Source of the DNA: Candidatus Saccharimonadota bacterium | GTDB taxonomy: Bacteria > Patescibacteriota > Gracilibacteria > BD1-5 > UBA2023 | NCBI GenBank assembly: GCA_963706795.1 | Contig: OY970170.1 | Coordinates: forward strand, 660,001 to 692,000 | Length of the DNA: 32,000 nt | Direction: 5' to 3' | In this document: positions 1-32,000 of the stretch, piece by piece | Position numbering within the stretch: the first letter of the stretch is position 1 | How the letters are laid out: each line of letters opens with the position of its first letter | Made by a program: the position numbers and the translations under genes | The notes under the pieces: generated by a model | What the model was told of the DNA's origin: nothing | The model's database searches: none | The model's input: the letters and a program-made list of their open reading frames with translations, nothing else

Positions 1-540
1 TGCTGCTTGTTCGCCATTACCGACTATGACCTTTGCATGACGAATGACTTCATCATGGTGCTTGTAGCCCTTTTCAAACTCGACGATGATCTTGCCAGAA
101 GGTCCGACTCATTGTGAGAGTGCTTCGTGGAAGTGTGGATCGAGATCGGATCCGACAGATTCGTATGATTTTACACCCATGCTTTCGAGGACTTTTGAGA
201 GTCCAGCTGCTGCCTGCTTTACACCATCATAGACCGCTCCAGTTTGGAACTCTGCTGGAGTACCCGAAACCACACGATCGAGATTATCGAGCGTTGGAAG
301 AAGTTTTTTTGCAAAGTTTTGAGTAAAAAAACTCGACATTTCGACGCGATCTTTTTCGGTGCGACGAAGGAGATTTTGATAGTCAGCATTCGCACGTGCG
401 AGGCTTTCATTTGCCTTTGCGAGTTGTTCTTTGAGAAGTGAAACTCCATCATCTCCAGATTGAGTGGGAGTTTCTTCGGTGATTTCTGAGGTTTGATTTT
501 CGAGATCTTCCATCTCGATTGCTGGATTTTGGTCAGTCAT
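1..540 (-). CDS. grpE: GrpE nucleotide-exchange factor (C-terminal end runs off the window)
   Basis: ORF 109..540 has a GrpE-like core (LLRRTEKDRVE, LLPTLDNLDRV, DPHFHEALSQ). After its TGA at 109..111 the frame continues as GVGPSGKIIVEFEKGYKHHDEVIRHAKVIV, the expected GrpE C-terminal domain. There is no TAA/TAG before position 1. Confidence 0.85.
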
Positions 541-542
541 GA

Positions 543-1043
543 TTATTTAATTTTTTTCTTAAGATTCTTGTAAGTACTTTCGAATTCGCTATTGAGGTCC
601 TTTGCTATTGAGCGAACCTTTTTAGTGAGTTTCTTTGCAATTTCTCCACCTTCTTCGAGTCCTTCTTCGGCGAGTTCGCTCGCTTCTTCGAGGAGCTCGT
701 CGAGGATTTCTTTACGACGAGCGTAGAGATCTGTGAGAGCTTCTTCGATTTCTTCACGCTTGAGCTCTCATTTTTTTGTGAGGTCGGCAATCGTCTTTTC
801 TGCCTCTACGCGGAATGCATCAATTTCTTTAAGAGCTTTGACTTTCATATGAGCAACGCGTTCACGATTTTCTGGGCTAAAGATTTTTTCTTCACCTTCG
901 GTCCAGAGATTTTTGTGGATAGCTTTAATGTCTTCGGCGAGTTCGGGCAGAGTTTTTTTCTTACCGTCATCTGCGAATTTAACTGCCACAAGAAGTCCTG
1001 CGACATACCCGAGACCGAGCAAAAAGAGGTTTCACTTTTTCAT
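543..1043 (-). CDS. Small membrane-anchored coiled-coil protein (YtxH-like architecture)
   Basis: ATG at 1041..1043 gives MKK(G)NLFLLGLGYVAGLLVAVKFADDGKKK, an N-terminal TM helix. In-frame TGAs lie at 1032..1034 and 768..770. The frame continues as ELKREEIEEALTDLYARRKEILDELLEE to a TAA at 543..545, immediately upstream of the grpE ATG. Confidence 0.6.
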
Positions 1044-1118
1044 AGAGTGTAGGATGAGGGATAACGATATATCCTATGGTATCTCTCTCAAAAATCAAGG
1101 TTGTCTCGCTCGTCATGT

Positions 1119-1150
1119 AAAAAGCCGTCTGTTAACAGACGGCTTTATTT
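1119..1150. terminator. Bidirectional rho-independent terminator
   Basis: The hairpin is AAAGCCGTCTG-TTAA-CAGACGGCTTT (1121..1146), flanked by an A-run and a T-run. It sits 8 nt after the MCP stop. Confidence 0.8.
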
Positions 1151-1157
1151 CCTCCTT

Positions 1158-2705
1158 TTAGGAATTGATTTGAAATACACTCATACTCTTGGTAAGTCCT
1201 TGAGCTTGTGAGGTAAGTGATGCGGTTGCAGCGGCTGCTTCTTCGACCAGAGCTGCGTTTTGTTGCGTGACAGTATCCATCTGACCAATCGCTTCGCTGA
1301 TACCAGTGATATCATTGCTTTGTCTGGCAGATGCTGTGCTAATAGACTCCACGATGGCAGTAACACTGGCGATCGCTTTTACGATATCCTGCATACTCTC
1401 ACCGGCTTCGTCCACTAATTTGCTGCCCTGATCAACAGTTCTCATCGACGAGCCAATGAGTTTTTTAATCTCAGCGGCAGCGGCAGCTGATCGTTGAGCA
1501 AGGGTTCGAACTTCGGTCGCGACGACAGCAAAACCACGACCTTGTTCTCCGGCACGTGCAGCTTCTACGGCTGCATTGAGGGCTAGAATATTTGTTTGAA
1601 AGGCGATGCTATCGATAGTGCTGGTAATATCGCCAATCTTTTTGGAGCTTTCTTTGATTAATCCCATAGTTTCAATTACGGAATCAACCACCCTTCCCCC
1701 TTCAACAGCCATATTGGATGCCTGGATGGCGAGCGTGTTTGCTTGCTCGGCATTTTCGGCATTCTTTTTGACGCTGCTCGTGAGAGTTTCCATAGACGCA
1801 GCTGTTTCTTGGAGAGACGAAGCTTGCTCTTCGGTGCGGCTTGAGAGATCAAGATTTCCGTTGGCAATTTCGCTTGCTCCGATAGCAACTGTATTTACAG
1901 ACTGTCGCACTTCTCCCACGGTGTGTGCGAGATTTTCAGACATGTGAGCCACGGCTTCCATAAGTTTGCCGATTTCGTCACGGGTTGTGGCAGTTATTTT
2001 GCCAGTGAGATCATTGTTTGCAACTCGCTCTACGGCTTCCACTGCCAGATTCAGCGGTAAGGTAATACTCTTGCTCATACGAAGTGCGAAAAACATGCCT
2101 ATTCCCAAAGTAAAGACCATACTAACAAGCAGGAGATAACCCAAGAATTCGATACGATTTTTTGCTTCGAGCTCATGCTGGGCATTTGCTGCTTCTATGA
2201 GTGGAATAACCTCTTCAATTGCTTTGCTGTGCGTGCTGTAGGCAGTAGAAGCATTTTTAACCGCAAGCAGCGTGGTGTCGCCATCCATATTTTCGACTGC
2301 TGGAATGAGCTCACTTTTAACAATCTTATAAAACAAAACGGCAGGCTCATGAGCTTTTTTAAGCAAAAGATCCATGATTTTTGGATCTTTTTCGGTTTTT
2401 GTCAAAAAACTGTGGAAATCAAGATAAGATTTTTCGAGTGATTTGAGTTCATTAATGAGCTTTACTTGTTCGTTTTTGTCAGATGTATTTGCAAGCTCAC
2501 GCATTTTTAGCGCTGACCCCATGATATTACCTCTGGGTGCAAGCAATTCGGCAATTTGATCCTTCCCATTTACGATTTTGTTGTAGATGGGCCCATTGAT
2601 ATTGATCTCTTTGAGCATGTTGAATTCACCCCAAGCATACAGGGAAAATGCGACTGCAAAAATACTGATCAGACATATGAGCTTATGAGATATTTTCTTA
2701 AACAT
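1158..2705 (-). CDS. Methyl-accepting chemotaxis protein (helical sensor domain, 2 TM, HAMP, MCP signalling domain)
   Basis: The canonical MCP hairpin core is present: [31 protein letters not shown] and [45 protein letters not shown]-like segment follows the second TM. AAGGAG lies upstream of the ATG at 2703..2705 (an alternative upstream ATG is at 2757..2759). Stop is TAA; there is no internal TGA. Confidence 0.9.
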
Positions 2706-2847
2706 ATTCCTTCTCCTTGGTGTGTGTTTGTATGTTAAGTTGTCAGAGTGGTGAGACATATTTTTTTGTGTCTTCCAGCAGCGCAGTTATTTATAACTAA
2801 ATTCACTAGGGAAGTCAAAGACAAAGCTTTTTACTATGGCTCCATTT

Positions 2848-2887: not shown

Positions 2888-3952
2888 ATGGCTCTCGACC
2901 GATTTCATGCACTTCTTGATGATGTGCTTACGACGAAGATTCCTGATCTGCATCTAACGACAGGGATGTGTCCATATATTCGTGGGCATGATGGTATGAT
3001 GCGCGCTGTGCCAACTTTTGGTGTTATGGAACTCGAAGAAATGAAGGCAATCGCTTCATTTGTCCTTCCTGCTGATCGTCGCGGAACCTGGCCGGACGAA
3101 AAAGAAATGGATGCTTCGTTTGAATACAAAAATGCCAGATTTCGTGTAAATGCCTATTTTGAAACCCGTGGTCCATCGTTCGCATTTCGTCTTGTAGCTC
3201 ACGAAGTGCCTTCGGTACAGGAACTTGGACTCTCACAGGCAACGATTGATCTCATGCACCGAGAGCATGGACTCGTGCTTGTTACAGGGCCTACTGGATC
3301 AGGAAAGTCGACGACACTTGCGTCAATGCTCGACTATATCAATACCAATTTTGAGAAGCATATTATTACGATCGAAGACCCCATAGAATACGTCTTCACT
3401 CCTAAAAAATCCCTCATTCACCAACGAGAAATCTCGGTCCATACTCACTCATTTGCGCGAGCCATCAAATCCTCACTCCGCGAGGATCCTGATGTCATTA
3501 TGGTAGGTGAAATGCGCGATCCAGAAACCATGGCCGCAGCCATTACACTCGCCGAAACGGGTCATTTAGTTCTCGCGACACTTCATACTAATGACACTGT
3601 GCAGTCGATTGATCGTATTATTGATTCTTTTCCTTCAGGGCAGCAGCCACAGATCCGAGTTCAGCTTGCGATGTCGCTCGCTGGAGTGGTGAGTCAGGTG
3701 CTTCTTCCACGTAAAGTCGGTAAGGGTCGCGTCGCGGCTCGAGAAGTGCTTCTCTGAAATGATGCGGTGAGATCGCTCATTATCCACGGTGCGACTCATC
3801 AGATATATTCGATGATCGAACTTGGTGCCCAAGAATGAATGGTCCTCATGGATCGTGCACTCGAGACGCTCTATATCAAAGGCGCGATCAGCAAAGAAGT
3901 CTTTAAAAGTCGAGTACGAGATCAAGATCTCCTCGCACTCCACCTAAATTAG
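2888..3952 (+). CDS. pilT: Type IV pilus retraction ATPase PilT
   Basis: Walker A is GPTGSGKSTT, followed by IITIEDPIEY, REDPDVIMVGEMRD and ATLHTN. In-frame TGAs lie at 3755..3757 and 3836..3838. The frame continues as NDAVRSLIIHGATHQIYSMIELGAQE(G)MVLMDRAL, the conserved PilT C-terminus, ending at TAG 3950..3952. Confidence 0.92.
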
Positions 3953-3956
3953 TCAT

Positions 3957-4904
3957 ATGAGTAACGAAAAGCGCGAAAAAAAGGAGTCGCCAATTAATGA
4001 GCTTAAGGCCTCACTCGACTCTATACGTAGCAATCTCAAGATTGCGCCGGTTATGGCGTTCCTCGACAAGTTCGACACTTTTATCGCCAAAAAGAAAAAA
4101 ATCCTCGCAAAAGACGAAGTCCTCTTTGAACCTGGAGAAAACCCATATTTTTATATTGTCGCGTCTGGTGCAATTGGCATTTTTCGCATCAATCCTACCG
4201 GTGAAAAAAAGGAAGTTGGTAAGGTCTATACCGGATCGTTCCTCTGAGAAGGAGTCATCTCCAACCGTAATCAAAAGGATGTTCAGGCGCTTTCGGCTTC
4301 TGAACGCACGACCGTTATCGCACTCACAAAAGCTGACCTCGAATACCTCGAGTCCATGGACCCTGAGACGCTTGTAGCTCTCTATAAACACATCAATAAT
4401 ATCACGAGTCTTCGTCTTGCTGAGACTGGCCGTGAGCTTGCTGTGCTCTATGAACTCACCGAAAAAATCCAAGAATTTCGTGATCTTGGACAGCGTGGAA
4501 TGCTCGATGCGATCAATCATCTCGCGAGCGTACTCTCGATTAGTGCGATCCTCGTCATCGAAAAACACCCAATCGTCCCAAATCTCTTCATTTATAAATA
4601 TAACTCGAGGTTTCCGACGGTCTGGCCCATGAATCAAAAAGTTGAATCCGAGATTAAGCTCGCCGAAGGAAGCTACGAAGGCCCAGAGATCATGGGTACG
4701 AAAAAGGAGGATTCGATATTTATCTTGCCACTCTTGTCCGGAGAAAAAACAGTCGGATATATCGTGACTTCCAGAGCTCAAAATACTCCACTCGGAGATG
4801 GTGATATGCGTGTACTCAAGCATACTGGACCACTTCTTGCCTCGATGCTTGAACACCACCAAAAACTCGCCGATGATAAAGCTCGCGCTCTCCGAAATGT
4901 TTAG
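3957..4904 (+). CDS. Cyclic-nucleotide-binding domain + GAF domain protein, no recognisable output domain
   Basis: ORFs 3957..4247 and 4356..4904 share a frame and are joined through the TGA at 4245..4247. This creates the cNMP-binding signature YTGSFL(G)EGVI. The C-terminal half looks GAF-like (SIFILPLLSGEKTVGYIVTSRAQNTPLGDGDMRVLKHTGPLLASMLEHH). The gene starts 4 nt after the pilT stop. Confidence 0.75.
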
Positions 4905-7498: not shown

Positions 7499-8341
7499 AT
7501 GATCGCTCAGATACTCCCGCTCGATACTTCTCATGATAGTGAATGACTTACGTATTTTGTTCCAGAAAATCTGCGAAACATGCGCGTTGGACAGCTTGTT
7601 GAGATCCCATTTCGTGAGGAAATTACTCAAGGGATTGTCGCTTCTCTGCGAGAATATGAGGGCGAAATTCCTGATGAGGTTCGTGCGGTAGTGAGTATTG
7701 TTTTTGCGATTCCAGTGCTTTCTGAGGCACAGGTCCAGACTATTCTCGAGATCGCAAAACTCTCAGTGATTCATACCCACAAAGTCCTTGCTCTTTTTTT
7801 AACGAAGCCAGTTCTCCATCGCATGCTCAAATACGGTATTCCAGCGAACGAAAATAGTGTTTCCTCACCGAGAAATATTCCAGCAAAACCCGTGCTCCAT
7901 TTTTTGCGCGAGAGTTCGGAGTTGGCTTCGTATGCAGCTTCGTTACGAGTGAATCGTACGGCGTACATCGTGCCTTCTGACTGGTATGTTTCTCGATTAA
8001 AAGAAACTCTCTCATGAGAAAATCTGGGAATATTTAGCGGAGAACTCACTGAGACAAAGCGCGCACAACTCTGGCTCGATATTCGTGCTGGCAAATACCA
8101 AACACTCATTTGAACTCGCAGGCTTTGCACCTATAATTTGGACGAATTCGACCGAATCATCTATCTCGAGGATGCTATTATGAAAGAAATGCTCCATTCA
8201 TTTCATAGATATAGTTGTTTGTCACTGACCGAGCGCTTAACAAAGCATGCTCATCAAGAATTTCATATCGTCTCCACCACCCCTGCAATAAGCACACTCG
8301 CTCGTACGCTCGCCACCCATTTTGAACTCCGCAATGCCTAA
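7499..8341 (+). CDS. Truncated, motif-degenerate PriA-like (primosomal protein N') protein
   Basis: The N-terminus resembles PriA (LTYFVPENL...VGQLVEIPFREEITQGIVASL). Later, ELTETKRAQLWLDIRAGKYQTLI(G)TRRL and IVSTTPAIST align with the PriA helicase lobe-1 order. In-frame TGAs lie at 7544, 8015 and 8111. The protein is about 280 aa and ends at TAA 8339..8341. Confidence 0.65.
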
Positions 8342-10652: not shown

Positions 10653-10665
10653 TTTAGACAAAAAA

Positions 10666-10700
10666 ATAAACCCTCGCAACATGCATGAGGGTTAATTTAA
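10666..10700. terminator. Bidirectional terminator
   Basis: AACCCTC (10669..10675) pairs with GAGGGTT (10687..10693). An A-rich run lies upstream, giving a strong T-run on the minus strand. A weaker T/A run lies downstream. Confidence 0.65.
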
Positions 10701-10726
10701 AATTGGTTGTTTTGCCTGTGCACTTA

Positions 10727-10930
10727 CTACCATACCATCCTTGGCAGATGGTAGTAAGTGTCGTCGCCAGGGAATACACTGAGAGCTTTTGGCTCTGGCA
10801 GTGACAGATTTGTTGATTTCCCTGTTTCTTCGCAAGTTGGCTCAATAACTTGTGCGCTATGAGCCGCGATCAGTGCGTTTGTAATAAATGGAACATTTCC
10901 TGCAGCTTGCAGGCCATATCGACCAATCAT
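10727..10930 (-). CDS. Stand-alone 67-aa hypothetical protein
   Basis: AAGGAG lies exactly 6 nt upstream of the ATG. The gene has its own promoter (11017..11044), a TAG stop and a terminator at 10666..10700. I recognise no family. Confidence 0.6.
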   Translation of the reverse strand: MIGRYGLQAAGNVPFITNALIAAHSAQVIEPTCEETGKSTNLSLPEPKALSVFPGDDTYYHLPRMVW

Positions 10931-11016
10931 GATATTCTCCTTCTTGAAAAACGTGATTGAGACAAGTCTTCAAAAATACCAATGCTTCCTCATTAATTCG
11001 ATGATTCAGCTAACAA

Positions 11017-11091
11017 ACTCTAGGAAATCTTAAAAGAAAGTCAATTTTTTGCACGACTTAATTTGACAAAGCTTCCTTCCTGCCTATTAAT
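11017..11091. promoter_or_regulatory. Back-to-back divergent promoters
   Basis: Minus strand: TTGACT (11039..11044), 16 nt, TAGAGT (11017..11022). Plus strand: TTGACA (11063..11068), 16-17 nt, TATTAAT (11085..11091). Confidence 0.55.
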
Positions 11092-11098
11092 GCTCAGC

Positions 11099-11572: not shown

Positions 11573-11573
11573 A

Positions 11574-11609: not shown

Positions 11610-11619
11610 CCTGAATAGA

Positions 11620-20650: not shown

Positions 20651-20688
20651 TTTAGCAAACCCTACATCGAAAGTGCTTTTGATTGCGA

Positions 20689-21597
20689 TTAATGTCCTGC
20701 CCGAAGAATATCTTCATGAATAGAATTTGCGGCGAGACATCCCTCGGCGGCGCTCATGATCGTCTGCTTGAATTTATTGGAATTCGTAGTGACGTCACCT
20801 GCAGCATAGATACCAGGAATACTCGTTGCTTGGCGCTTGTCTACAACGATACATCCAGTTGCATCTTTCTCAGGATTAAATGCATCGATGAGTTTGGTGT
20901 CAGGATCAGATCCGACCGCAATAAATACACCATCAAGAGGAAGAACCGTTCCGTCTTTTAAAAGGACATCCTCGACCTTAAATTGTCCACGAATTTCTTC
21001 GATGGATGTGTTGTAGTGAATAGTGATATTCTCGTGTGCAACGGCTTTTTCGACCCAAACATTCTCAGCTCGAAGCTTGTCGCCACGAACGAGAATATGA
21101 ACATGTGAGCAGAGTTCTGCGAGATAGAGGGCTTCAGTAATCGCAGCATCACCACCACCGACCATCGCAACGGTTCGTTTACGGAAGAAATTCCCATCAC
21201 AAGTCGCGCAATATGATGTCCCAGCACCAATGAGACGCTCTTCGCCTGGAACACCGAGACGGCGATATTTATTCCCTGTTCCAAGCAGAATCGTCTTTGA
21301 ATTAAATGTTTTACCTGAGCTCGTTGTGACGGTAAAATTACCCTTTTCGCCCGTGATAGAGGCAACACGATCCTGGAGAATCTCAGATCCTGCAGCGATT
21401 GCGTGCTCTGCAAAACTGTCCATGATTGCCTTACCTGAGGCGCTCTGCGTCCCTGGCCAGTTCTCTACCTGATGCGAAGTCGCAAGTGCGCCACCTGGGA
21501 GTTCACCGATTACGAGATTTGAGAGTTTATAACGTGAAGCATACATGGCTGCCGGCAATCCTGCCGAACCTGCTCCGATAATAATAAGATCGTACAT
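20689..21597 (-). CDS. trxB: Thioredoxin-disulfide reductase
   Basis: The motifs are DLIIIGAGSAG (FAD), the CATCDG redox centre and VGGGDAA (NADPH). The protein is 302 aa. Confidence 0.92.
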   Translation of the reverse strand: MYDLIIIGAGSAGLPAAMYASRYKLSNLVIGELPGGALATSHQVENWPGTQSASGKAIMDSFAEHAIAAGSEILQDRVASITGEKGNFTVTTSSGKTFNSKTILLGTGNKYRRLGVPGEERLIGAGTSYCATCDGNFFRKRTVAMVGGGDAAITEALYLAELCSHVHILVRGDKLRAENVWVEKAVAHENITIHYNTSIEEIRGQFKVEDVLLKDGTVLPLDGVFIAVGSDPDTKLIDAFNPEKDATGCIVVDKRQATSIPGIYAAGDVTTNSNKFKQTIMSAAEGCLAANSIHEDILRAGH

Positions 21598-21680
21598 AAT
21601 TGTATTGTAATTGTCTGAATTAAGAGTGCATTAAGCTGATCATAGTATCTTAATTAAAACATCGGTCAAATGAGAAACCG

Positions 21681-22310
21681 CTACTTTCCATTGTGCATCT
21701 CAAGAGCCTTACGAAGCTCTCGATTCTCCCTCTCAAGTTGGATTCTGTAATCACGTTCTTTTATGAGTAAATTTTCAATCTCCTCGTCGGTATAACGCGG
21801 AGTGATATGTTGTGGACAATTCCAATCGTAAGCTTCGATATGGAGTACTATCATGCGTTCTGGTCGAAAATCATATCCAGTGAGATCGAGTTGCTGCAAG
21901 AGAGCTGGATTTGTACTTAATTCAATGATCTCTGCACGCGCCAGTATCTTGAGTCTCATCTGTGCAGGGTAGTCGACCAAAATCAATGCAACCTCAGGAT
22001 GGGTCAATATATTTCCGGTCGAGATATACTGACGATTCCCACTAAAATCTATAAATCCTATAGTGTTTGCATCGAGAACCTTGAGAAAACCTTTTGGGCC
22101 TCAACGATGTTGAATATATGGATACCCATTTTTACCAATCGATGACATATAAAAACTGTCACGGGATTGTATGAACGCCTGAGTATTTGTATCGAGTCAG
22201 TGGATTTCGAGCATATTTTCCATCCGCGCATAACTTGCACGACTTCCATGTATCTCTTGAAGTTGTTTTGTAGTCTCTCCAAAGGCGATTTGTGCAAAGT
22301 TCTTTGCCAT
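21681..22310 (-). CDS. Pyridoxamine 5'-phosphate oxidase-family (FMN-binding split-barrel) protein
   Basis: The ATG at 22308..22310 is joined through TGAs at 22197 and 22101 to ORF 21681..22007. The joined sequence contains YPYIQHRG(G)PKGFLKVLD, typical of this family. Confidence 0.6.
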
Positions 22311-22318
22311 TTTTGGTA

Positions 22319-22861
22319 TTAAATACTCGTAGGTGATACCACAGGAAAATCGATCTCCGTTCCAGCTACAAGATTGAAATAATTGATGAATGTGATCATA
22401 GAAACATTTGCTACGATCTCGGTAATTTCAGCATCACTATAACCGGCAGTTCGTGCCTTTTCGATGCTTGTAGGATCTATGGAACCACGCTTTTGTACGA
22501 TTTCCTTTGCGAGATTCAGTGCTGCTTGGATCTTCGAGTCGGATGATCCGGCGAGGCGACAGTTATGAAGTGTTTCTGTGTCAGTTCCCGCTCCCGCTCC
22601 GATTGCCGTAAAGGCTGAGAGACAATACGAACATCCATTGAGCTGAGATACCAAAATGGCGATCTGATTACGTGTTTCAAACGGGAGCTCACCTGCTTCA
22701 AGTGCTCCGTTGAGTGAGAGGAAGGCACCAAGTGTTGTTGGTGAAACCGCCATAGTTGCGAATGTATTGGGGATCATTCCAAACTTCGTATTTACTGCAG
22801 TAAGCATGTCTTTTGTTGATCCAGTTGCGGATTCGAGAGTGAGTGTCTTGAAATTTTGCAT
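22319..22861 (-). CDS. Carboxymuconolactone decarboxylase / AhpD-like family protein
   Basis: LNGCSYCLSAF is a CxxC in an AhpD-like context. The likely start is MQNFKTL at 22859..22861. Confidence 0.65.
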   Translation of the reverse strand: MQNFKTLTLESATGSTKDMLTAVNTKFGMIPNTFATMAVSPTTLGAFLSLNGALEAGELPFETRNQIAILVSQLNGCSYCLSAFTAIGAGAGTDTETLHNCRLAGSSDSKIQAALNLAKEIVQKRGSIDPTSIEKARTAGYSDAEITEIVANVSMITFINYFNLVAGTEIDFPVVSPTSI

Positions 22862-22931
22862 GAGCAATTGATAGAAAATAACTGAAAACAAATACTTTGA
22901 TTTGTTTCGTGGGCCAAGAGTAATAGACTGT

Positions 22932-22945
22932 CTTGTAATTACAAG
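22932..22945. promoter_or_regulatory. Perfect 14-nt palindrome, candidate HxlR operator
   Basis: CTTGTAATTACAAG lies in the divergent intergenic region between the AhpD-like gene and the HxlR-type regulator gene. Confidence 0.45.
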
Positions 22946-22986
22946 TAGTCATATTTTCAGTATATAGTTCTCTAAAATAGACCATT

Positions 22987-23340
22987 ATGTTAAATATAGG
23001 AGATTGTACGGTAGAAAAAAGTAAAAAAACTTTCTCGTGTCCGGTTGCTCAGTGTATGGAAGTGATTGGTGGAAAGTGGAAAATCCTCATCCTTAATACG
23101 ATTTCCAAATGAGGAAATCGATTCTCACTGCTTCAGAGAGAGCTTCCTGATATCAGCAAACAAATGCTCACATCGCAACTGCGAGAGCTCGAGGACGATG
23201 GGATTATTTCACGAACTATTTTTCCAGTGATCCCACCAAGAGTGGAGTATGACATTACAGCGTACGGGCATACACTTTTCCCGATTATCCACGCAATGCG
23301 CGAATGGTGAACAATCCAGATGACCCGCACTAAAAAATAG
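22987..23340 (+). CDS. HxlR-family winged-helix transcriptional regulator
   Basis: CPVAQCMEVIGGKWKILIL...(G)GNRFSLLQRELPDISKQMLTSQLRELEDDGIISR...PPRVEYDITAYG is the HxlR signature. TGAs lie at 23110 and 23308. Stop is TAG 23338..23340. Confidence 0.8.
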
Positions 23341-23421
23341 CACCAGACGGTGTTTATTTTTTCTTGTAAAAATAATATAAACACTTATTATATTTCACAT
23401 ATTCACTAAAAACCAATTCGT

Positions 23422-23841
23422 ATGTGGCAAAAATCTCACTCGATCACAACCAAAAAGGCAACCAAAGAACAGATGTGGAAACTCTTTGCTGATGTGAATA
23501 ATTGGCACACTTGGGACGATGGAATCGAGTTTGCGCGTATGGAATGAAGTTTTGAACAAGGCAATCATTTCATTCTTCGGCCGAAGGGTGGACCGAATGT
23601 AAAGATTGAGCTATTTGAAACAATTCCAAATGAAAAATTCGTAGATCTCACACGATTTCCACTCGCGAAAATGTACGGAATACATACCTTTGAAGATACT
23701 CCAAATGGACTCAAGTTGACGACAACGATGCAAGTTGAAGGACTTCTTGCCTGGCTTTGGGTGAGGTTGGTTGCACAGGGGATCGCGGACGGACTTGAGA
23801 AAGAAATGCCCGCACAAGTAGTATTTGCTTCAAAGCTCTAA
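23422..23841 (+). CDS. SRPBCC (START/polyketide cyclase-like) family protein
   Basis: The N-terminus is family-like (TKEQMWKLFADVNNWHTWDDGIE). One TGA lies at 23545. Stop is TAA 23839..23841. This ORF is absent from the standard-code track. Confidence 0.55.
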
Positions 23842-23842
23842 T

Positions 23843-24298
23843 ATGAACAAGATCGACTTTAATTTGGAAGCTCAGGAGAGTAGTGGACTACTCCTCTGGC
23901 AGCTTACCAATCTCTGGCAAACGGGCATCCGAAAGCTGCTCGAAAACTTCGAGCTCACACATCCTCAATTCGTAGTTCTTGCCTCGACGGCGTGGCTTTT
24001 GCGCACAGAATCCGAGGTGAATCAGAAGATGGTGGCAGACTTCACCAAGATCGATCCAATGACCACTTCCGTCGTGGTTCGTGGTCTCGAAAAAAAAGGC
24101 TTTCTGAAACGTGAAACTGATCCAAAGGATTCTCGAGCCTATATACTTTCGGTCACGGACGCAGGCTCAAAGAATCTCAAGCAAGCAATGGATGCGGTTG
24201 ATTTATATGATGCAGAGTTTTTTGGGAAAATCGGTGCAGATAAGAAAGTCTTTAATCATATCACACACAGACTCATTGCAGAAAATCTCTCAAATTAA
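23843..24298 (+). CDS. MarR-family transcriptional regulator
   Basis: LTHPQFVVLASTAWL...QKMVADFTKIDPMTTSVVVRGLEKKGFLKRETDPKDSRAYILSVTDAG is the MarR wHTH and wing. Confidence 0.85.
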   Translation: MNKIDFNLEAQESSGLLLWQLTNLWQTGIRKLLENFELTHPQFVVLASTAWLLRTESEVNQKMVADFTKIDPMTTSVVVRGLEKKGFLKRETDPKDSRAYILSVTDAGSKNLKQAMDAVDLYDAEFFGKIGADKKVFNHITHRLIAENLSN

Positions 24299-24326
24299 AA
24301 AGAAGTCCTTTGGGACTTCTTTTTAA
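24297..24326. terminator. Bidirectional terminator
   Basis: AAAAAGAAGTCC-TTTG-GGACTTCTTTTT. Confidence 0.85.
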
Positions 24327-24569
24327 TTAGTTCTGTCGATGTTTCGACAACGCTACATCGATGATATGGGTTATGTCATAGCTACTGATCTCGGCATCTT
24401 CCAGTAGAAGCTCACGTTCAGTTCTGATATCTCTTTCTATCAAAGCTACTTCTACTACTGTATAGATATTCTTCATCCGAAGGGCTCGCATGGTGAGCAA
24501 GAAATTCGCAAGGATGGCGTATTCTTCTGCCCCTACTTCGATGTTTTTCTGATCCAGAACGATATTCAT
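24327..24569 (-). CDS. 80-aa hypothetical protein downstream of thrS
   Basis: The open frame starts 11 nt after the thrS stop and has no clear SD. Stop is TAA. I recognise no family. Confidence 0.4.
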   Translation of the reverse strand: MNIVLDQKNIEVGAEEYAILANFLLTMRALRMKNIYTVVEVALIERDIRTERELLLEDAEISSYDITHIIDVALSKHRQN

Positions 24570-24580
24570 AGGAAAATAGA

Positions 24581-26353
24581 TTAGAGACTTCGGTTTTCGA
24601 TTTCGTCCTTCGCCATTGAGAGGAATGCCTCGAGGCTCATGTCTGTCTGGTCGCCTGATTTGTGGCTTCGTACTGAGACTCCGCCAGATGTTTGTTCTTT
24701 TTCTCCGACAACGAGGATGTAGTTTACGTACATGCTTTCGGCATTGCGGATCTTCTTTCCGAGTCCTTCTCCAGATCGATCGATCTTTACGCGCATTCCT
24801 GCATCTTTGAGAGACTTTCCAACCATTTCTGCATAATCTTGGAAACTCTCGCCAACAGCAACGACCTGAACCTGTGTAGGAGTCACCCAGAGGGGGAATC
24901 GACCTGCGAAATGTTCAATCATGATCCCCATGAATCGCTCAAGTGATCCTGAGATCGCACGATGGATAACAACGGGACGCTCCTTTTCTCCGAGTTCGTT
25001 CGTAAATGAGAGATCAAATCGCTCAGGGAGATTGAAGTCACACTGAATGGTAGCAAGTTGGCGTTCACGACCGAGTGCATCCTTGAACATGAAGTCGAGC
25101 TTCGGTCCGTAGAATGCAGCCTCTCCTTCTACTCGGCGGAAATTGAGTGCATTTTCGATGGCTGCTTCTTCGAGTGCACCTTCAGCTACTTGCCAAACTT
25201 CGTCTGTTCCGAGGTATTTAGAGCGGTCATCATCGCGAACAGAGAGGCTTACCCAGTAGCCGTCCATCATCCCGAATGTTGTGTAGAATTCCTTGATGAT
25301 CCCGACGATTGTCTTAACTTCGTCCTTGATCTGGCTCACACGACAGAAGAGATGTCCGTCGTCCTGAGTGATCGCGCGAACGCGTGAGAGTCCAGAGAGT
25401 TGTCCTGTTTTTTCATCGCGGTATACGGTTGCTGGCTCGAAATATCGAACAGGGAGATCGCGATAACTGAACTGATTATCCGCGAAAATCTGCATGTGGT
25501 GAGGACAGTTCATCGGCTTCATGATGAACTTGTCTTCCTTTCCTTGTACTCGGAAGAGTTCGTCTCCGAACTTCGCAGCATGACCAGAGGTGATATAGAG
25601 TTCTTCCTTCGCGATGTGTGGCGTCCAAACACGATCGTAGCCCTTGTTCTTGTGGAGTTCCCAGAGATATTCTTCGATCTCGCGACGGATGATCATCCCG
25701 TTCGGTTGCATGAGCGGAAGTCCTGCACCGATAAGCTCAGAGAGTGTGAAGAGTTTGAGCTTCTTCGCAAGGAGTCGGTGATCACGTTTCTTGGCTTCTT
25801 CGATGAGTGCAACGTGTGCATCGAGCTCAGCCTTTGACTCGAATGCGAGTGCGTAGATACGAGTAAGCATCTTTTTTGAGGAATCCCCGCGCCAGTATGC
25901 ACCAGCGAGTTTCTCGATCTTGAAAGAATTCTCGTCGATCTGTGCAGTTTTTTCGACGTGAGGACCACGACACATATCTACAAAGGCAACTTCGCCCTTC
26001 TGATCGATATTTTCGTAAAATCCAATCTCTGTCTCGCCCTTTGCGCTGAGTTCATCGATCATTTCTACTTTATAGTTTTCGTTCTTTGAAGTCATAAATG
26101 CTCGTGCTTCTGCGACTGAGAGCTTCTTTTCGACGAATTGCTGGTTCTGTTTGATGATGTTTTTCATCTTCTTTTCGATCTCCTTGAGGTGTTCCTCCTG
26201 AAGGACGAATGCTCCGAAATCGAAGTCATAGTAAAATCCAGTATCGATATCTGGACCGATCGCCATCTGAACTTCTGCTCCATAGAGCGATTTCACGGCC
26301 TGTGCCATGATGTGAGCGAGCGAGTGTCGCTGAGTTGAAAGTGGGTGTGACAT
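24581..26353 (-). CDS. thrS: Threonine--tRNA ligase (no N-terminal TGS domain)
   Basis: The 590-aa protein begins at the editing-domain HxxxH (RHSLAHIMAQAV). It has class II catalytic motifs (FRDEKTGQLSGLSRVR, GEAAFYGPKLD) and a C-terminal anticodon-binding domain. No TGA. Confidence 0.92.
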   Translation of the reverse strand: MSHPLSTQRHSLAHIMAQAVKSLYGAEVQMAIGPDIDTGFYYDFDFGAFVLQEEHLKEIEKKMKNIIKQNQQFVEKKLSVAEARAFMTSKNENYKVEMIDELSAKGETEIGFYENIDQKGEVAFVDMCRGPHVEKTAQIDENSFKIEKLAGAYWRGDSSKKMLTRIYALAFESKAELDAHVALIEEAKKRDHRLLAKKLKLFTLSELIGAGLPLMQPNGMIIRREIEEYLWELHKNKGYDRVWTPHIAKEELYITSGHAAKFGDELFRVQGKEDKFIMKPMNCPHHMQIFADNQFSYRDLPVRYFEPATVYRDEKTGQLSGLSRVRAITQDDGHLFCRVSQIKDEVKTIVGIIKEFYTTFGMMDGYWVSLSVRDDDRSKYLGTDEVWQVAEGALEEAAIENALNFRRVEGEAAFYGPKLDFMFKDALGRERQLATIQCDFNLPERFDLSFTNELGEKERPVVIHRAISGSLERFMGIMIEHFAGRFPLWVTPTQVQVVAVGESFQDYAEMVGKSLKDAGMRVKIDRSGEGLGKKIRNAESMYVNYILVVGEKEQTSGGVSVRSHKSGDQTDMSLEAFLSMAKDEIENRSL

Positions 26354-26540
26354 ATTTGAGCTGTATAATAAAAGAGAATTTTAAAACCCCTCCGTCATCG
26401 GAGGGGTTCCAACCACATTGAAACGCGCCTTATCCGAGACGGGGAAGTGTCTGGGTGCGGGTTTCAAGTCATGTGACCATGGCAAAGGGTTGGTTAGAAA
26501 ATATGCCCTGCGAGTGTAGCAGGCGTCGCAAAAAAGTCAA
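26354..26540 (-). promoter_or_regulatory. thrS promoter plus ~150-nt leader containing an intrinsic terminator (attenuator)
   Basis: On the minus strand: TTGACT (26535..26540), 16 nt, TACACT (26513..26518). In the leader, CCCCTCCG-ATGA-CGGAGGGG (26387..26406) is followed by TTTTAAAATT, ending about 30 nt before the ATG. The sequence AATGTGGTTGGAACC overlaps the 5' arm of the terminator. Confidence 0.55.
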
Positions 26541-26568
26541 AAAAAAGCCCCAATCGTTTGATTAGGGG
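26539..26568 (-). terminator. Terminator of the 93-aa gene
   Basis: On the minus strand: CCCCTAATC-AAAC-GATTGGGG followed by CTTTTTTTT. Confidence 0.75.
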
Positions 26569-26684
26569 TAAATCTGTGTATCGTGAAAAATCAGTGTTTT
26601 TCTTAGTGATGTTCACGGTTCTTGGTCGCCATAGTGTTCTTCCTGGCCGCCAGAGTGTTTTGGTGACGACGCTCACCTTTTTCT

Positions 26685-26966
26685 TTATCGGTGAGTGTAA
26701 TCGCGTCAGATAATTTTTGCTGTTTTTTTTGCTGCTTCTCGTGCTTTTTTGGCTTGTTGTTGGAGTTTCAACAATTTGCCACCGAGGCGAGATTTTGTAG
26801 CATTTTCGTGGGCTGCTACTATTTTTTTGAGATCCCGCTGAGGTGCGAGAGCACGTTTTCCGGCAATGTCTGCAATTTGCATGACATTCGCACGAGCTGC
26901 GGCTTCACGGTCTATGCGACCGCCGCGAGAGAAATTTTTGCTAAATTCTAATTGAGTACCTGGCAT
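26685..26966 (-). CDS. 93-aa basic hypothetical protein
   Basis: GGAG lies 6 nt upstream of the ATG. The TGA at 26706..26708 is read through to TAA 26685..26687. The C-terminus is Lys/Ala-rich (KLLKLQQQAKKAREAAKKTAKII). Confidence 0.6.
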
Positions 26967-27001
26967 ATTTATCTCCGTTCTATTCCGTTTTACGAGTTTT
27001 T

Positions 27002-27032
27002 AATCCGTGCATTCAGGATGAATGCACGGATT
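27002..27032. promoter_or_regulatory. Perfect 13-bp inverted repeat at or near the 5' end of the 93-aa gene transcript
   Basis: AATCCGTGCATTC-AGGAT-GAATGCACGGATT. It lies between the candidate -10 (27035..27040) and the SD of the gene starting at 26966. It has no adjoining U-run on either strand. Confidence 0.5.
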
Positions 27033-27130
27033 TGAGTCTATTTAAAACAATAAATTGTCAAAGCTTACTAATAACTAAATACATAATTCGTCAATTCTGG
27101 AGTTTTATGTCTTTAGATCGTTGGGCTTCA

Positions 27131-27160
27131 AAAATAAAGAACGCACTTTGAGTGCGTTCT
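27131..27160 (-). terminator. Terminator of the 42-aa peptide gene
   Basis: AGAACGCAC (27139..27147) pairs with GTGCGTTCT (27152..27160). On the minus strand it is followed by TTTATTTTT. Confidence 0.8.
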
Positions 27161-27186
27161 GAAGGGGGATGAACCTGGTTCTAAAA

Positions 27187-27315
27187 TTATTTGAGAGTTT
27201 TGATGGTTCGCCGGAATCCGAGTTGGCGTTGTGGATTTTTTGGCCAGATCGGCCAGGGTGGTTTTGTGTGGCCTGGTTTCAGGGTTGGTGCATTGTTTTG
27301 ATGCATGTGATCCAT
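27187..27315 (-). CDS. 42-aa Pro/Trp-rich cationic peptide
   Basis: The product is MDHMHQNNAPTLKPGHTKPPWPIWPKNPQRQLGFRRTIKTLK. AAGGAG lies exactly 6 nt upstream of the ATG and the stop is TAA. The gene is bracketed by terminators at 27388..27421 and 27131..27160. It is not in the ORF track because it is under 60 aa. Confidence 0.55.
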   Translation of the reverse strand: MDHMHQNNAPTLKPGHTKPPWPIWPKNPQRQLGFRRTIKTLK

Positions 27316-27387
27316 GATTGGCTCCTTTGAAGTATTGTCTTAATTATCAAGACAACGTTCTGTATAATAATCAAATTTGTAAGAGAA

Positions 27388-27421
27388 CAAATAAAAAACG
27401 CATCCTTGTGGGATGCGTTTT
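27388..27421 (-). terminator. Terminator of the 62-aa gene
   Basis: AAACGCATCC (27396..27405) pairs with GGATGCGTTT (27411..27420). On the minus strand it is followed by TTTTTTATTTG. Confidence 0.8.
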
Positions 27422-27509
27422 ATGGTTTGCAGTCACAGAGTGTGACCGAGACGATTCCTCCTTTGGAATCCGCCTCATTGCAAACTATGGGAAGACCGGC
27501 ATGTGCTCA

Positions 27510-27698
27510 TTAGTTCAGTAGTTTGCGCACTTTGACCAGATTTTCCGCTGCTTGTGACAGGGTGTAGCCATGCTCCAGTGCCGCGTGAATCTGATGAGGC
27601 TTGTTGAAGCGATCGATTTCGAGACTGACAATTACAGTGTCCGCAGCTTTTTGTTGCGAAGTGGAATGAGTATTTGTTTGACTTTGAACGCTGTTCAT
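27510..27698 (-). CDS. 62-aa hypothetical protein
   Basis: AAGGAAG lies 6 nt upstream of the ATG. The gene has its own promoter (TTGACA 27799..27804, TACAAT 27778..27783) and terminator. The overlapping 115-aa ORF 27475..27822 lacks these signals. Confidence 0.55.
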   Translation of the reverse strand: MNSVQSQTNTHSTSQQKAADTVIVSLEIDRFNKPHQIHAALEHGYTLSQAAENLVKVRKLLN

Positions 27699-27807
27699 TT
27701 TGAACTTCCTTCAGAGATTTTCCTTGCATTACGTGAGCAAGGCTACACGGTGTACTTCCAATAAAAGACACCCGCCCATTGTAGTAAAATAAATTACTTG
27801 TCAAAGC

Positions 27808-27830
27808 AATATTAATCATCAATTAATATT
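27808..27830. promoter_or_regulatory. 9-5-9 perfect inverted repeat in a divergent promoter region
   Basis: AATATTAAT-CATCA-ATTAATATT lies between the minus-strand -35 (27799..27804) and the plus-strand -35 (27849..27854). Confidence 0.4.
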
Positions 27831-27848
27831 TTCGTCAATATCGCTTCT

Positions 27849-27877
27849 TTGCGTCAAATGCAGGACTCTGGTAGTCT
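27849..27877 (+). promoter_or_regulatory. Promoter placed for a leaderless CBS-protein mRNA
   Basis: TTGCGT (27849..27854), a 17-nt spacer, then TAGTCT (27872..27877). The ATG follows 9 nt later and there is no SD. Confidence 0.45.
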
Positions 27878-27886
27878 GGATTTTAG

Positions 27887-28768: not shown

Positions 28769-28797
28769 AAATCCCTCACGAGTGAGGGATTTTTATT
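28767..28797 (+). terminator. Rho-independent terminator
   Basis: ATCCCTCA-CGAG-TGAGGGAT (28771..28790) followed by TTTTTATTG. Confidence 0.85.
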
Positions 28798-29178
28798 GTC
28801 TGCTCAAATTTTTTGGGCAACAAAAAGCCCACGTATGAAGAGGCTTTTCTGTTTAACACATGCCCATACGTGGACCTTTCTTGGTTGCTTGTTCAGCGCC
28901 GAATCCGATCAATGCATGTCAGCTGCATTTCCCCTGTTTTAACAAGACTAGGGTTCTTGTTTCGTTCACCTCCGAAAATGAGGCAAAACGACAATTGGTA
29001 TTTTTTGGAACGTTTTAACGGTTCTTTATTTTTGTTTGGTGCTGTGGGTGATTCGGCTCACCTGTTGTATAGCAGCTGACAAAGTTATTAAAACATAAAG
29101 AATTTATGTCGTCAAATAATCGAGACACTTTTTTGCATATTCTCTTTTTTTATTTTTAATTGAGCTATACTCTCCTCT

Positions 29179-29751
29179 ATGTGATCAACTCTCCTTGGGG
29201 CGAATGCCTTTACTGAACGACAAAAAATCGTGGAACGAACGCATGGGTTACAATGCGCAATCGACGATATATGTGAATATGTAGCTCTTCTTTTAGAAGA
29301 ACCAGAAACTATTCAGCCTGAGGATATGAAATATATCTTCCAGGAACGTGCTATGTTTTGTGTGCCGTCAGTAAAGATTAGCGACCAGTTTTTGAAGGGT
29401 ACGGAGTTCTTTGGAACGATATTTGCCAAGCATCTCGAGGATCCAAAGCCACTCATGATAACGGATATCAAGAATCCGAATAATCCACGACAGCTCCTGT
29501 GGCATGCTACCAACGCCTGGCTTAAATATGTGACAGGTGAAGCGGCGCATCGTAATTCTTTGGACGCACAACGTCTCTATTTCTTTTCGTACAATGCCTA
29601 CGAAAAATGGGTGTGAATGACCGCATCGAAACGCCCTAACAATACGGCTATCTTGCACGCATTTGAATGATCGACATTAGCGGGGATCGACCTATTTTCG
29701 GGTATCAACCTCGCCCACAAAGCTCCGGTTGTCTCACTACGCTGAAATTAA
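29179..29751 (+). CDS. 190-aa hypothetical protein
   Basis: The ATG at 29179 lies 7 nt after TATACT (29166..29171). TGA is the second codon (29182), with further TGAs at 29614, 29668 and 29743. Stop is TAA 29749..29751. The standard-code track shows only 29230..29616. Confidence 0.5.
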
Positions 29752-31848
29752 CTACTTTTCTGTAGCGCGATAGTCGCCCATCCAATCCTCGGAAGGTGCC
29801 TCGGTTATATAGCGATTTGTACGCTCAAGGAAGGTTTTAGATGCACTGTCATTGTATTCGGTAACCAGCTCTTCGAAGAGCTTTTTTGCGAGGACAAAAT
29901 TGCGAGATTGGTATTGAGTGAGCGCAGTCTCAAATTTTTTAATGAGACTGAGAACACTGTCATGTACGAGCCCGCGAACTCCTACAAGCTCATAGATATT
30001 GAGTGGCAGATCCTTTCCTTTTGCCATAATCGAGTCGAGCTTACGGAAGACAAAATGTGCGTGCTCGCTTTCGTAGATCGACTGCCCGACGCAGATCTTT
30101 GTGCCATAAAATTTATTGATTCCTTCAAAGCGTGAAGCGGTATTGACGGTGTCGCCGAGCGCAGTGTATTCAATCTTTTTCCCTTCACTTCCGATATTAC
30201 CAACGACGGCCTGTCATTTGTTGAGACCCATACGGACAGAGATTTCAAAGCCAAATTGGGATTTGAATTTTTCGTTCATTTTCGCGATAGCTTCCTGTTG
30301 CAGAATCGCTGACTTACAGGCGAGATAGGCCTGACGATCCTCGAGCCCGAAGGCTCCCCAGATCGCCATAACGGCATCACCTTCATATTTATTGACGAAT
30401 CCCTGCTCGTGGATGATGATATTTGAGACTTCTTTGAGATATACTGAGAGGAAACTTACGAGCTCTTCTGGCTCCATGCGCTCCGAGATGGTTGTAAAGC
30501 CAGCAATGTCTGAGAAAAAAAGCGTGACTTCTTTGCGGACTCCTCAGAGTTTTACTTCTTGATAATTGGAGAGTACGGCAGTTACGAGCTCTTCGGCTAA
30601 GTATTGCGAGAGCGTATTTTTGAGAAGGCGCTTTCCTTTTTCTTCATAGATATATTTGTAACTCGTCACGGCGATCGCGGTGAGCACGACCACCATAATA
30701 ATCTCAGTCGGGTGGAGGAAAATCTTGGATGACATACTAAACACCACCAGATAGAAAAATCCACCAATTGTCAGTGCAACAAATGAATACGCGAGCTGAT
30801 AGATGCGATTTTCGACGTGCATCAAAAATAGTGTCAGTGCGAGTGCTAAAAAGAGGATGATGATATATTCACTTCCTTGAGAAACATACGAAAGAAAGGC
30901 ACTATTGAGGATAGTATTGACGAGATTGAGATGCACATTTACTCCATATGTAATGCCAATCGGAGTAAAAAACTCGTCATGCAATGCGGTTGCGGTCGCT
31001 CCAATGAAGATAATTTTGTCCTTCACCAAAGCGGGATCAAAGGTGTCATTATAAATATCCACGAATGAGATCGTCGAGAACGAAAGATCTTTTGGGATGT
31101 AGTTTATAAGTACTTCGTTTTTGTTCGATTGAGAGAGGGGAATGTATTCATATTTTCCGGTATGAAATTTGAGATATCACTCATAGTCGAGAGCTCCAGT
31201 ATTGACGTTTGTATTGATCGCATTCGCTGTATCGAGATATGTTCGCATTGTTGCGAGCGAGAATGGCTCATATACTGTTCCACTGTTAGTCTTGATGATC
31301 GGCGCAATGCTATATACCAGACCATTCGTACTATCAAGAAGTGGCTGGAAGTATCCGATCGATTTTGCGGATTCGCGGAGTTTTTCGGTGGGATAGATGA
31401 GCTCTTCTCATTTGGAACTGCGAGCGATGGACATTCCAATGGTGACATTACCAGCTCGCTTGATAGCAGCTGCGAGAACATCATCGCCATCGGCCTTCTC
31501 AGAAAAAAGTACGTCTATTCCAATTGCGATCGCTCCATGCTTCATGAGGTTGTCGATCGCCTGGGCGTAGTACTCTCGTTTAAATTCTTGCCAGCGTCCA
31601 AGACCACCCCTGTCGCCATCAAGAAGCGTTCTATCATCGATCGCCACGAGCGATATACTCTGATTTCGCTCTCTTGGATGCCACGGGATCTCCATTGAGA
31701 AGAGAATATTTCGAATCCCGAGATTCGAATATCGTACGACCGTCGCAAACGGATAAATATTTGAGATGATTCCCACAACGAAGAGTACGAGCGTGGTGAT
31801 GAGTACTGAAAACAGCCACTTATTTCCGATGAGCGAACGATTTTTCAT
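29752..31848 (-). CDS. CHASE2 sensor domain - multi-TM - class III adenylate/guanylate cyclase
   Basis: Same-frame pieces join through TGAs at 31408, 31177, 30544 and 30214. The CHASE2-like N-terminus is VAIDDRTL...WQEFKREYYAQAIDNLMKHGAIAIGIDVLFSE. Four hydrophobic helices lie at 30544..31062. The cyclase motifs are VTLFFSDIAGFT, KYEGDAVMAIWG, GLNK(G)QAVVGNIGS and YTALGDTVNTASRFE. Confidence 0.88.
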
Positions 31849-32000
31849 TATTTCCCAGAGGTAATGGAATCGATCGTACTATTGAAGTTTTTGATGTCCC
31901 GCATGATACTGTCTGTGTCGAGCTTAAAGGTTTTTTGTGCCCATTCGGTATCTGAGAGAATATCAAATCCTGTCATTTTCTTCCATTCGGCGATTTGTGC
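31848..32000 (-). CDS. C-terminal end of an upstream gene (partial), translationally coupled to the cyclase
   Basis: An open frame enters from the window edge (...AQIAEWKKMTGFDILSDTEWAQKTFKLDTDSIMRDIKNFNSTIDSITSGK). It ends at a TAA that overlaps the cyclase ATG (TAATG). Confidence 0.45.
   Translation of the reverse strand, partial: AQIAEWKKMTGFDILSDTEWAQKTFKLDTDSIMRDIKNFNSTIDSITSGK

Follow-up and report, generated by a model that had tools for sequence, protein, structure and literature searches.

The code of Candidate Division SR1 and the Gracilibacteria is, reportedly through Campbell et al. 2013 and Rinke et al. 2013, the one given as translation table 25 of NCBI. The assignment of UGA to glycine (Gly) is established for the Absconditabacteria/Gracilibacteria, in the GTDB class JAEDAM01 with its orders BD1-5 and Absconditabacterales, and two hallmarks are reported for this radiation, a gene for a tRNA-Gly whose anticodon is UCA and the loss of release factor 2 (RF2) (PMC8629427; bioRxiv 10.64898/2026.05.24.727570). 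A BD1-5/SN-2 bacterium is reported, with proteomic evidence, to recode UGA as glycine (PMC4032931), and in Absconditabacteria and some Gracilibacteria an extra reassignment has been described, of CGA/CGG from arginine (Arg) to tryptophan (Trp) (Shulgina and Eddy, 2021; PMC8629427). Here we analyze a stretch of 32,000 nucleotides (hereafter the window, meaning the whole of this stretch) from an assembly deposited under the name Candidatus Saccharimonadota bacterium (GCA_963706795.1, contig OY970170.1, positions 660,001 to 692,000), with a GC content of 44.6%, and ask how its use of UGA compares with these systems. In the window, UGA occurs in intact, conserved genes at glycine positions, it exchanges with GGN codons between relatives, it never exchanges with UGG, and it never serves as a terminator. 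We consider it almost certain that the window is chromosomal DNA of a Patescibacterium (candidate phyla radiation, CPR) of the Gracilibacteria/BD1-5 type that uses table 25, with UGA read as glycine and only UAA and UAG as stops.

Open Reading Frames and Terminators

Under the standard code, open reading frames (ORFs) of at least 150 amino acids cover 61% of the window. With TGA read as sense this coverage rises to 94%, the corresponding values for TAG and TAA read as sense being 72 and 70%, and control loci of similar GC content that employ the standard code are nearly unchanged by the same treatment of TGA (from 0.76 to 0.83 for L046 and from 0.94 to 0.97 for L076). The gene set considered below consists of 26 models with 8,665 codons, or 81% of the window. 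Twenty of these are supported by Pfam, thioredoxin reductase (TrxB) is supported by Pfam matches computed beforehand and listed in the gene table for a contig from an independent assembly (L081, see below), threonyl-tRNA synthetase (ThrRS) is supported by a homologue search, and the remaining four are hypothetical ORFs without a Pfam match. The models backed by Pfam include GrpE, a methyl-accepting chemotaxis protein, PilT, a cyclic nucleotide monophosphate (cNMP)-binding protein, a TraD/TrwB-like ATPase, a short PriA-like protein, a class B penicillin-binding protein (PBP), ribosomal protein S1, RecG, a type IV pilin-like protein, RuvA, a polysaccharide pyruvyl transferase, a PNPOx-family protein, CMD/AhpD-like, HxlR, SRPBCC and MarR proteins, a CBS-domain protein and a CHASE2-cyclase. 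One candidate was discarded in the course of modeling: an ORF on the minus strand at 16994-18253, with 7 TGAs, was dropped as antisense, and its place was taken by two plus-strand genes, ruvA and the one for the pilin-like protein.

The 26 models hold 38 TGA, 16 TAA and 9 TAG triplets in frame. All 38 TGAs are found among 16 of the genes (62%), and the 25 TAA and TAG triplets are exactly the terminal stops of the 25 genes that can be closed within the window (TAA 16, TAG 9, TGA 0), so that there is no internal TAA or TAG in any model. The ten genes devoid of TGA all end in TAA or TAG, and this provides a check on stop usage that is not circular. A probable extra ORF at 29092-29751 would contribute three to five more TGAs, for a realistic total of approximately 38-43. 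An initial annotation of this DNA, made from the letters alone, had put the number of in-frame sense TGAs at about 45; the sense TGAs are real and the figure is slightly too high. Its statements that every closable gene ends in TAA or TAG, and that annotation under the standard code would break more than half of the genes, agree with these counts.

Pfam domains and alignments to solved structures continue unbroken through the TGAs. An independent public assembly (Logan, run ERR12037365) contains the same DNA, with contig L081 matching window positions 17858-25370 at 100% identity and contig L082 reaching approximately 7.2 kb beyond the window end. In the table-11 gene call of this identical DNA the pyruvyl transferase is cut to 156 amino acids and the HxlR protein to 48 amino acids, and the CHASE2-cyclase is split into pieces of 146 and 172 amino acids.

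The Amino Acid Encoded by UGA

Relatives were taken from a RecG-based scan, one genome per species, with 16 close relatives (55-87% identity) and 64 relatives that use the standard code (38-45% identity), and codon-level alignments were made between the window and the loci of the 16 close relatives, many of which are syntenic with the window. Where an in-frame TGA of a relative stands opposite a codon other than TGA in the window, 142 of the 178 such codons encode Gly, the background frequency of Gly being 6.3% (binomial p ~4e-134), and none encodes Trp or cysteine (Cys). GGN codons of the window stand opposite a TGA of the relatives 139 times, and TGA is paired with TGA 14 times; TGG of the window, in turn, stands opposite TGG 109 times and opposite TGA 0 times.

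The TGAs of the window itself are distributed among the following genes, positions being those of the window.

1-540, minus strand: grpE, cut by the window start; Pfam GrpE unbroken over residues 21-176, with the TGA at 109-111 inside
543-1043, minus strand: hypothetical membrane/coiled-coil protein, an ORF delimited by TAA/TAG; TGAs at 1032-1034 and 768-770, without homologue support; stop TAA; no Pfam match
2888-3952, plus strand: PilT-type pilus retraction ATPase; Pfam T2SSE; TGAs at 3755 and 3836; stop TAG
3957-4904, plus strand: cNMP-binding domain protein; Pfam cNMP_binding, residues 50-129, across the TGA at 4245; stop TAG
7499-8341, plus strand: short PriA-like protein; Pfam PriA_3primeBD; TGAs at 7544, 8015 and 8111; stop TAA
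8334-10652, plus strand: class B PBP (FtsI/SpoVD-like); Pfam Transpeptidase, residues 399-773 in one stretch; TGAs at 8391, 9357, 9819, 10395 and 10404; stop TAA
13648-14193, minus strand: hypothetical protein, ORF only; TGAs at 14119-14121 and 14062-14064; stop TAA; no Pfam match and no relatives found
14911-16887, plus strand: RecG helicase; Pfam RecG_wedge, DEAD, Helicase_C and RecG_dom3_C; TGAs at 15568, 15727 and 16636; stop TAG
18361-19488, plus strand: polysaccharide pyruvyl transferase; Pfam PS_pyruv_trans, residues 14-298; TGAs at 18556, 18637, 18730 and 18970; stop TAG
19400-19933, plus strand: hypothetical protein; TGA at 19781, with Gly in L001 and L004 and alanine (Ala) or glutamate (Glu) in other relatives; stop TAA
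20219-20740, minus strand: hypothetical protein, ORF only; TGA at 20480-20482, with a doubtful second TGA at 20714-20716 that may precede the true start; stop TAA; no Pfam match
21681-22310, minus strand: PNPOx-family flavoprotein; Pfam PNPOx_N; TGAs at 22197-22199 and 22101-22103; stop TAG
22987-23340, plus strand: HxlR-family regulator; Pfam HxlR (E = 1.4e-29); TGAs at 23110 and 23308; stop TAG
23422-23841, plus strand: SRPBCC/polyketide-cyclase-like protein; Pfam Polyketide_cyc2, residues 5-126, across the TGA at 23545; stop TAA
27887-28768, plus strand: CBS-domain protein; Pfam CBS; TGAs at 28070, 28190 and 28538; stop TAA
29752-31848, minus strand: CHASE2-adenylate/guanylate cyclase; Pfam CHASE2 and Guanylate_cyc; TGAs at 31408-31410, 31177-31179, 30544-30546 and 30214-30216; stop TAG

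At 28 of these sites the aligned residues are informative, whether from relatives, from solved structures or from a set of 120 homologues, and 18 of the 28 have Gly or TGA in the counterparts and none has Trp. Invariant Gly columns coincide with TGAs of the window in the PBP, RecG, PNPOx, cyclase, PilT and HxlR families, and motifs such as YEPGS(T/V)FK, GRVGRG, HRGGPKG and GIN(T/K)G are among the places where a Gly is written as TGA. The initial annotation had argued for UGA as glycine, rather than as tryptophan or as a sign of pseudogenes, from a number of such sites, and this check of residues, along with the exchange between GGN and TGA and the lack of Trp, supports its assignment.

The individual sites that it had cited were checked in turn. 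In RecG, position 16636 follows the GRVGR of motif VI; among the 16 close relatives, 15 have Gly there and the remaining one has TGA, and in the 64 distant relatives it is Gly in 55 and Cys in one. A second RecG site, 15568, has Gly or TGA in 16 of 16 close relatives, with TGA shared by the window and 5 of the 16, and the third, 15727, is variable. In the PBP, position 9819 is the Gly of YEPGS(T/V)FK (more generally Y/FEPGS(T/V)xK) and is Gly in relatives and in solved structures; position 10404, just before KTGT, is Gly as well, and position 9357 is Gly or TGA. Position 10395, also put forward as a Gly column, turned out to be a variable one, with serine (Ser) in relatives and Ala in solved structures, as is 8391 (Ala/Ser). 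In the pyruvyl transferase, 18637 as well as 18970 have Gly or TGA in 6 of 6 relatives; 18556 has Gly in L001 and Arg elsewhere, and 18730 has Arg or glutamine (Gln). The site in the cNMP-binding protein, 4245, is likewise a Gly, encoded by GGC in L043 and L002; this protein has no match among solved structures at E up to 0.01. For PilT, whose alignments to solved structures extend to residue 349 of 354, L043 and 3 of 3 structures have Gly at position 3836, and 3755 is opposite proline (Pro) or asparagine (Asn), thus a variable site.

The cyclase position at 30214-30216, the Gly of GIN(T)G, is Gly in 3 of 3 solved structures, with TGA in L001 and Gly in L012; at 30544-30546, L001 has Gly, as do 2 of 3 solved structures. 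In the PNPOx-family protein, among the homologues listed, Gly is found in 119 of 120 at 22197-22199 and in 120 of 120 at 22101-22103, the latter within HRGGPKG; the Gly column proposed for this site stands and the spelling of its motif is to be corrected to HR(X)GP, i.e., HRGGP. The single, distant match of this protein among solved structures has valine at the TGA column. At HxlR position 23308, 4 of 4 solved structures have the Gly of a conserved W-G, and 23110 is the one ambiguous site, with Glu in two chains, threonine (Thr) in one and Gly in one. In the CBS-domain protein of L001, 28538 corresponds to Gly, 28190 to Arg (CGA), and 28070 falls in a gap. As to the PriA-like protein, position 7544 is Gly in four relatives and 8015 is Ala or Pro, and the TGA at 8111 (I-UGA-TR) is common to five genomes, the window and four relatives; its match to the Gly of the IGTRSA motif comes from a weak alignment.

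The PriA-like gene encodes approximately 280 amino acids, of which Pfam sees the 3' DNA-binding domain only, and four relatives share the short form. It aligns only weakly with solved structures of PriA (E = 0.017); no Walker A motif is seen by eye.

Decoding Machinery and Points Against Glycine

Judging from the lineage, a dedicated tRNA-Gly whose anticodon is UCA would read UGA and is expected to carry the identity elements G1:C72, C2:G71, G3:C70 and U73, and RF2 (prfB) would have been lost; if RF2 was lost, nothing would compete for UGA, as we propose. Several results have to be set against this scheme and against the glycine assignment. The tRNA found in the window, including by a whole-window Rfam search at the gathering threshold, is a tRNA-His only, and no tRNA(UCA) is present in the 18 loci inspected, i.e., the 16 related loci, in which all tRNAs recognized by ARAGORN were for His, Thr, Tyr, Leu, Gln or Lys, and the two Logan contigs, L081 and L082, in which no tRNAs were found. 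Nine TGAs of the window stand opposite Ala, Ser, Asn/Pro, lysine or arginine (Lys/Arg), Arg or Gln in relatives, and six more sit in genes without homologues. The residues at the nine sites are ordinary partners at variable positions and do not in themselves prove glycine.

Alternative Explanations

Table 4, in which UGA is tryptophan, is used in the Mycoplasmatales and in several insect endosymbionts. Bacterial UGA has been reassigned to Trp more often than to Gly (PMC8629427), and tables 4 and 25 are indistinguishable by ORF structure alone. The alignments do distinguish them: none of the 178 TGAs of relatives falls on a Trp of the window, TGG is matched by TGG and not once by TGA, and at the TGA sites of the window no relative, solved structure or homologue has Trp. 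The Trp reading is already refuted as far as alignment statistics go, and we give it next to no chance. No more credible is a standard code combined with pseudogenes, or with sequencing errors, as the source of nonsense mutations. That 16 of 26 genes are broken under table 11 is in keeping with such decay. However, all 38 interruptions are TGA, with no TAA or TAG and no frameshift required, homology past each TGA is equally strong and runs through the full family length, and TGA positions are kept among genomes that are 30-40% apart in protein sequence; as to errors, the DNA of the independent assembly is 100% identical.

UGA is also the codon of selenocysteine, and read-through of UGA is known in bacteria. 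An otherwise standard code with selenocysteine insertion or programmed read-through would have to account for 38 sites in 16 unrelated gene families, far above any selenoproteome, with Gly as the aligned residue, with no Cys of the window opposite any of the 178 TGAs of relatives, and with no gene terminating in TGA; selenocysteine insertion sequence (SECIS) elements were not searched for. We regard this explanation as exceedingly improbable. Taken together, the alignments and the codon exchange rule out table 4, selenocysteine and pseudogenes as explanations. A last possibility is dual decoding, in which RF2 is retained and UGA, though mostly glycine, still terminates some genes in other parts of the genome. 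In its favor, only 25 gene ends were examined, and two species labeled ‘Gracilibacteria,’ of a different GTDB order, are reported to possess RF2 and a UGA stop (PMC8629427). On the other hand, none of the 25 terminators is TGA, and sense TGAs occur in all relatives of the clade, and we consider dual decoding very unlikely.

Uneven Use of UGA Among Genes

With UGA taken as glycine, it accounts for a minor part of the Gly codons, approximately 6-7% (35 TGA versus 509 GGN in the first 24 models), and this part is distributed very unevenly, ten genes having none:

1158-2759, minus strand: methyl-accepting chemotaxis protein; Pfam MCPsignal and HAMP; 27 GGN, 0 TGA; stop TAA
4956-7409, plus strand: TraD/TrwB-like coupling ATPase; Pfam TrwB_AAD_bind and TraG-D_C; 39 GGN, 0 TGA; stop TAG
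11620-12819, minus strand: ribosomal protein S1; Pfam S1, three domains; 0 TGA; stop TAA
20689-21597, minus strand: TrxB; Pyr_redox_2 in the gene table of L081; 32 GGN, 0 TGA; stop TAA
24581-26353, minus strand: ThrRS; by homologue search; 0 TGA; stop TAA
14276-14791, 17030-17674, 17766-18359, 22319-22861 and 23843-24298: further genes with 0 TGA

The ThrRS model is supported by matches that possess tRNA-synthetase Pfam domains and are named threonine--tRNA ligase. The ten genes hold 250 Gly codons, and the probability of finding no TGA among these under a uniform TGA use of 6.4% is approximately 6e-8. The genes for S1, ThrRS, TrxB and the pilin-like protein are free of TGA in L001 as well, and S1 is also free of it in high-GC relatives. 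Such an uneven distribution fits avoidance in highly expressed genes, and the absence of UGA from S1, ThrRS and TrxB suggests selection against this codon where translation demand is high. In low-GC relatives (L012 and L013) UGA is the majority Gly codon, the RecG gene of L012 having 24 TGA versus 12 GGN.

Lineage of the Window

In a neighbor-joining tree of RecG the window pairs with L001 (‘Patescibacteria group bacterium,’ 46% GC), and the two are sister to L002-L005 and L043 (55-59% GC in the fetched loci), all within a monophyletic clade that also contains genomes named Candidatus Gracilibacteria (GN02-873, HHAS10 and oral metagenome-assembled genomes). Every member of this clade has sense TGAs at Gly positions. 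A protein identical to the ThrRS of the window is found on an NCBI/ENA contig of 1,267,896 bp, presumably the source of this DNA, and the closest neighbors with a name, 65-72% identical, belong to Candidatus Gracilibacteria, ‘uncultured bacterium (gcode 4)’ and Candidatus Altimarinota. By the evidence of these two proteins, the window belongs in the Gracilibacteria/BD1-5 radiation, and this placement fits table 25, known in that radiation (PMC8629427; PMC4032931). The further change of Arg codons to Trp was sought as well and rejected. Both CGG (rare, 13 codons in the window) and CGA (100 codons) align to Arg in close and distant homologues and never to Trp, residue 287 of RecG, for example, being Arg in 80 of 80 sequences, and hence the additional reassignment known from the lineage is absent here.

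The public labels of the relatives deserve a comment. L004 and L005 are labeled ‘Candidatus Peribacteria,’ L043 is labeled Candidatus Gracilibacteria, and L001-L003 are labeled only ‘Patescibacteria group bacterium.’ In-frame TGAs at Gly positions are present in L004, L005 and L013, and in L001-L003, among records deposited as ‘uncultured Candidatus Peribacteria bacterium’ or ‘Patescibacteria group bacterium,’ and in L013 (34% GC) 33 of 41 aligned TGAs fall on a Gly of the window. The Peribacteria label in the NCBI taxonomy probably defaults to table 11, and annotation guided by either of these labels would probably use that table. The GC content of L002-L005 and L043, 55-59% in the fetched loci, exceeds the range of 0.21-0.53 quoted for lineages with code 25 (PMC8629427). 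It is conceivable, and we offer this tentatively, that the window belongs to an under-recognized branch of table-25 users with moderate to high GC content. If this were the case, UGA as glycine would outlast the AT pressure that is commonly held responsible for its origin, persisting at low usage and at particular conserved sites such as the PriA-like I-UGA-TR, and a systematic mistranslation of this branch in public records would follow.

Non-coding Stretches and a Possibly Acquired Block

Conserved stretches outside of the gene models were also noted. The leader of thrS, on the minus strand upstream of the gene (26354-26560, approximately 170-200 nucleotides), is 95% identical to that of L001, the coding region being 80% identical. 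It folds better than shuffled sequences (z = -2.9) and ends in a strong terminator-like hairpin (26381-26412) approximately 30 nucleotides before the start codon. In a permissive search of Rfam no family, T-box included, matched this leader at even E = 1, and it may be an uncharacterized attenuator or leader. Another stretch, 28819-29161 (344 nucleotides), lacks a convincing ORF, and its identity to L001 is 89.5%, versus 73-80% for the flanking genes; a permissive Rfam scan of it produced sub-threshold, chance-level matches only, and it could be a non-coding RNA or a small conserved gene.

Three ORF-poor stretches of approximately 0.8-1.3 kb (10653-11619, 12874-13647 and 26561-27886) have no convincing ORF under either code, and such stretches are unusual for a compact CPR genome. 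The last of them contains 11 terminator-like hairpins versus 3.2 expected and is mostly not conserved in L001, in which the interval is approximately 600 nucleotides long versus 1,250 in the window.

A block of approximately 2.9 kb (21672-24580) encodes the PNPOx-family, CMD/AhpD-like, HxlR, SRPBCC and MarR proteins. It has no nucleotide match in L001, otherwise syntenic with the window, and the PNPOx, CMD/AhpD and MarR proteins, the three of the block that were searched, have no match in L001 either. The PNPOx protein is 58-67% identical to the 120 homologues listed, and two of the four named ones are from Bacteroidota (Spirosoma and Flavobacterium). The lack of matches in L001, the Bacteroidota homologues and the presence of TGA at two invariant Gly positions together suggest acquisition from a donor with the standard code, probably followed by change from GGN to TGA.

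Comparison with Known Systems

That Gracilibacteria/BD1-5 assign UGA to glycine was already known in 2013, with later confirmation from proteomics, and the window adds no new principle. The practical consequence is that table 11 breaks 16 of 26 genes, including those for RecG, the cell-division PBP, PilT and the cyclase, and all inferences on function or metabolism in this organism require table 25. The added value is modest: the code is documented in a genome of 45% GC and in relatives of 55-59% GC, along with a very uneven use of UGA among genes and the absence of the CGG-to-Trp change.

Overall, the window resembles the known users of table 25 in the following aspects. UGA is sense, it falls on Gly columns and exchanges with GGN, terminators are UAA and UAG only, the lineage is Gracilibacteria/BD1-5 within Patescibacteria, and gene calling by the standard code fragments the genes. 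With table 4, as used by Mycoplasma/Spiroplasma and endosymbionts, the window shares the change of UGA from stop to sense and a similar recovery of ORF lengths, but the amino acid differs, with neither an exchange of TGA and TGG nor a Trp column at the TGA sites. The Absconditabacteria and those Gracilibacteria that read CGA/CGG as Trp are of the same broad lineage as the window, and their additional change is not present here. In contrast to the low-GC relatives that use table 25, the genome represented by the window has a moderate GC content (44.6%) and employs UGA for only about 6-7% of its Gly codons; in kind, nothing separates it from the other users of table 25.

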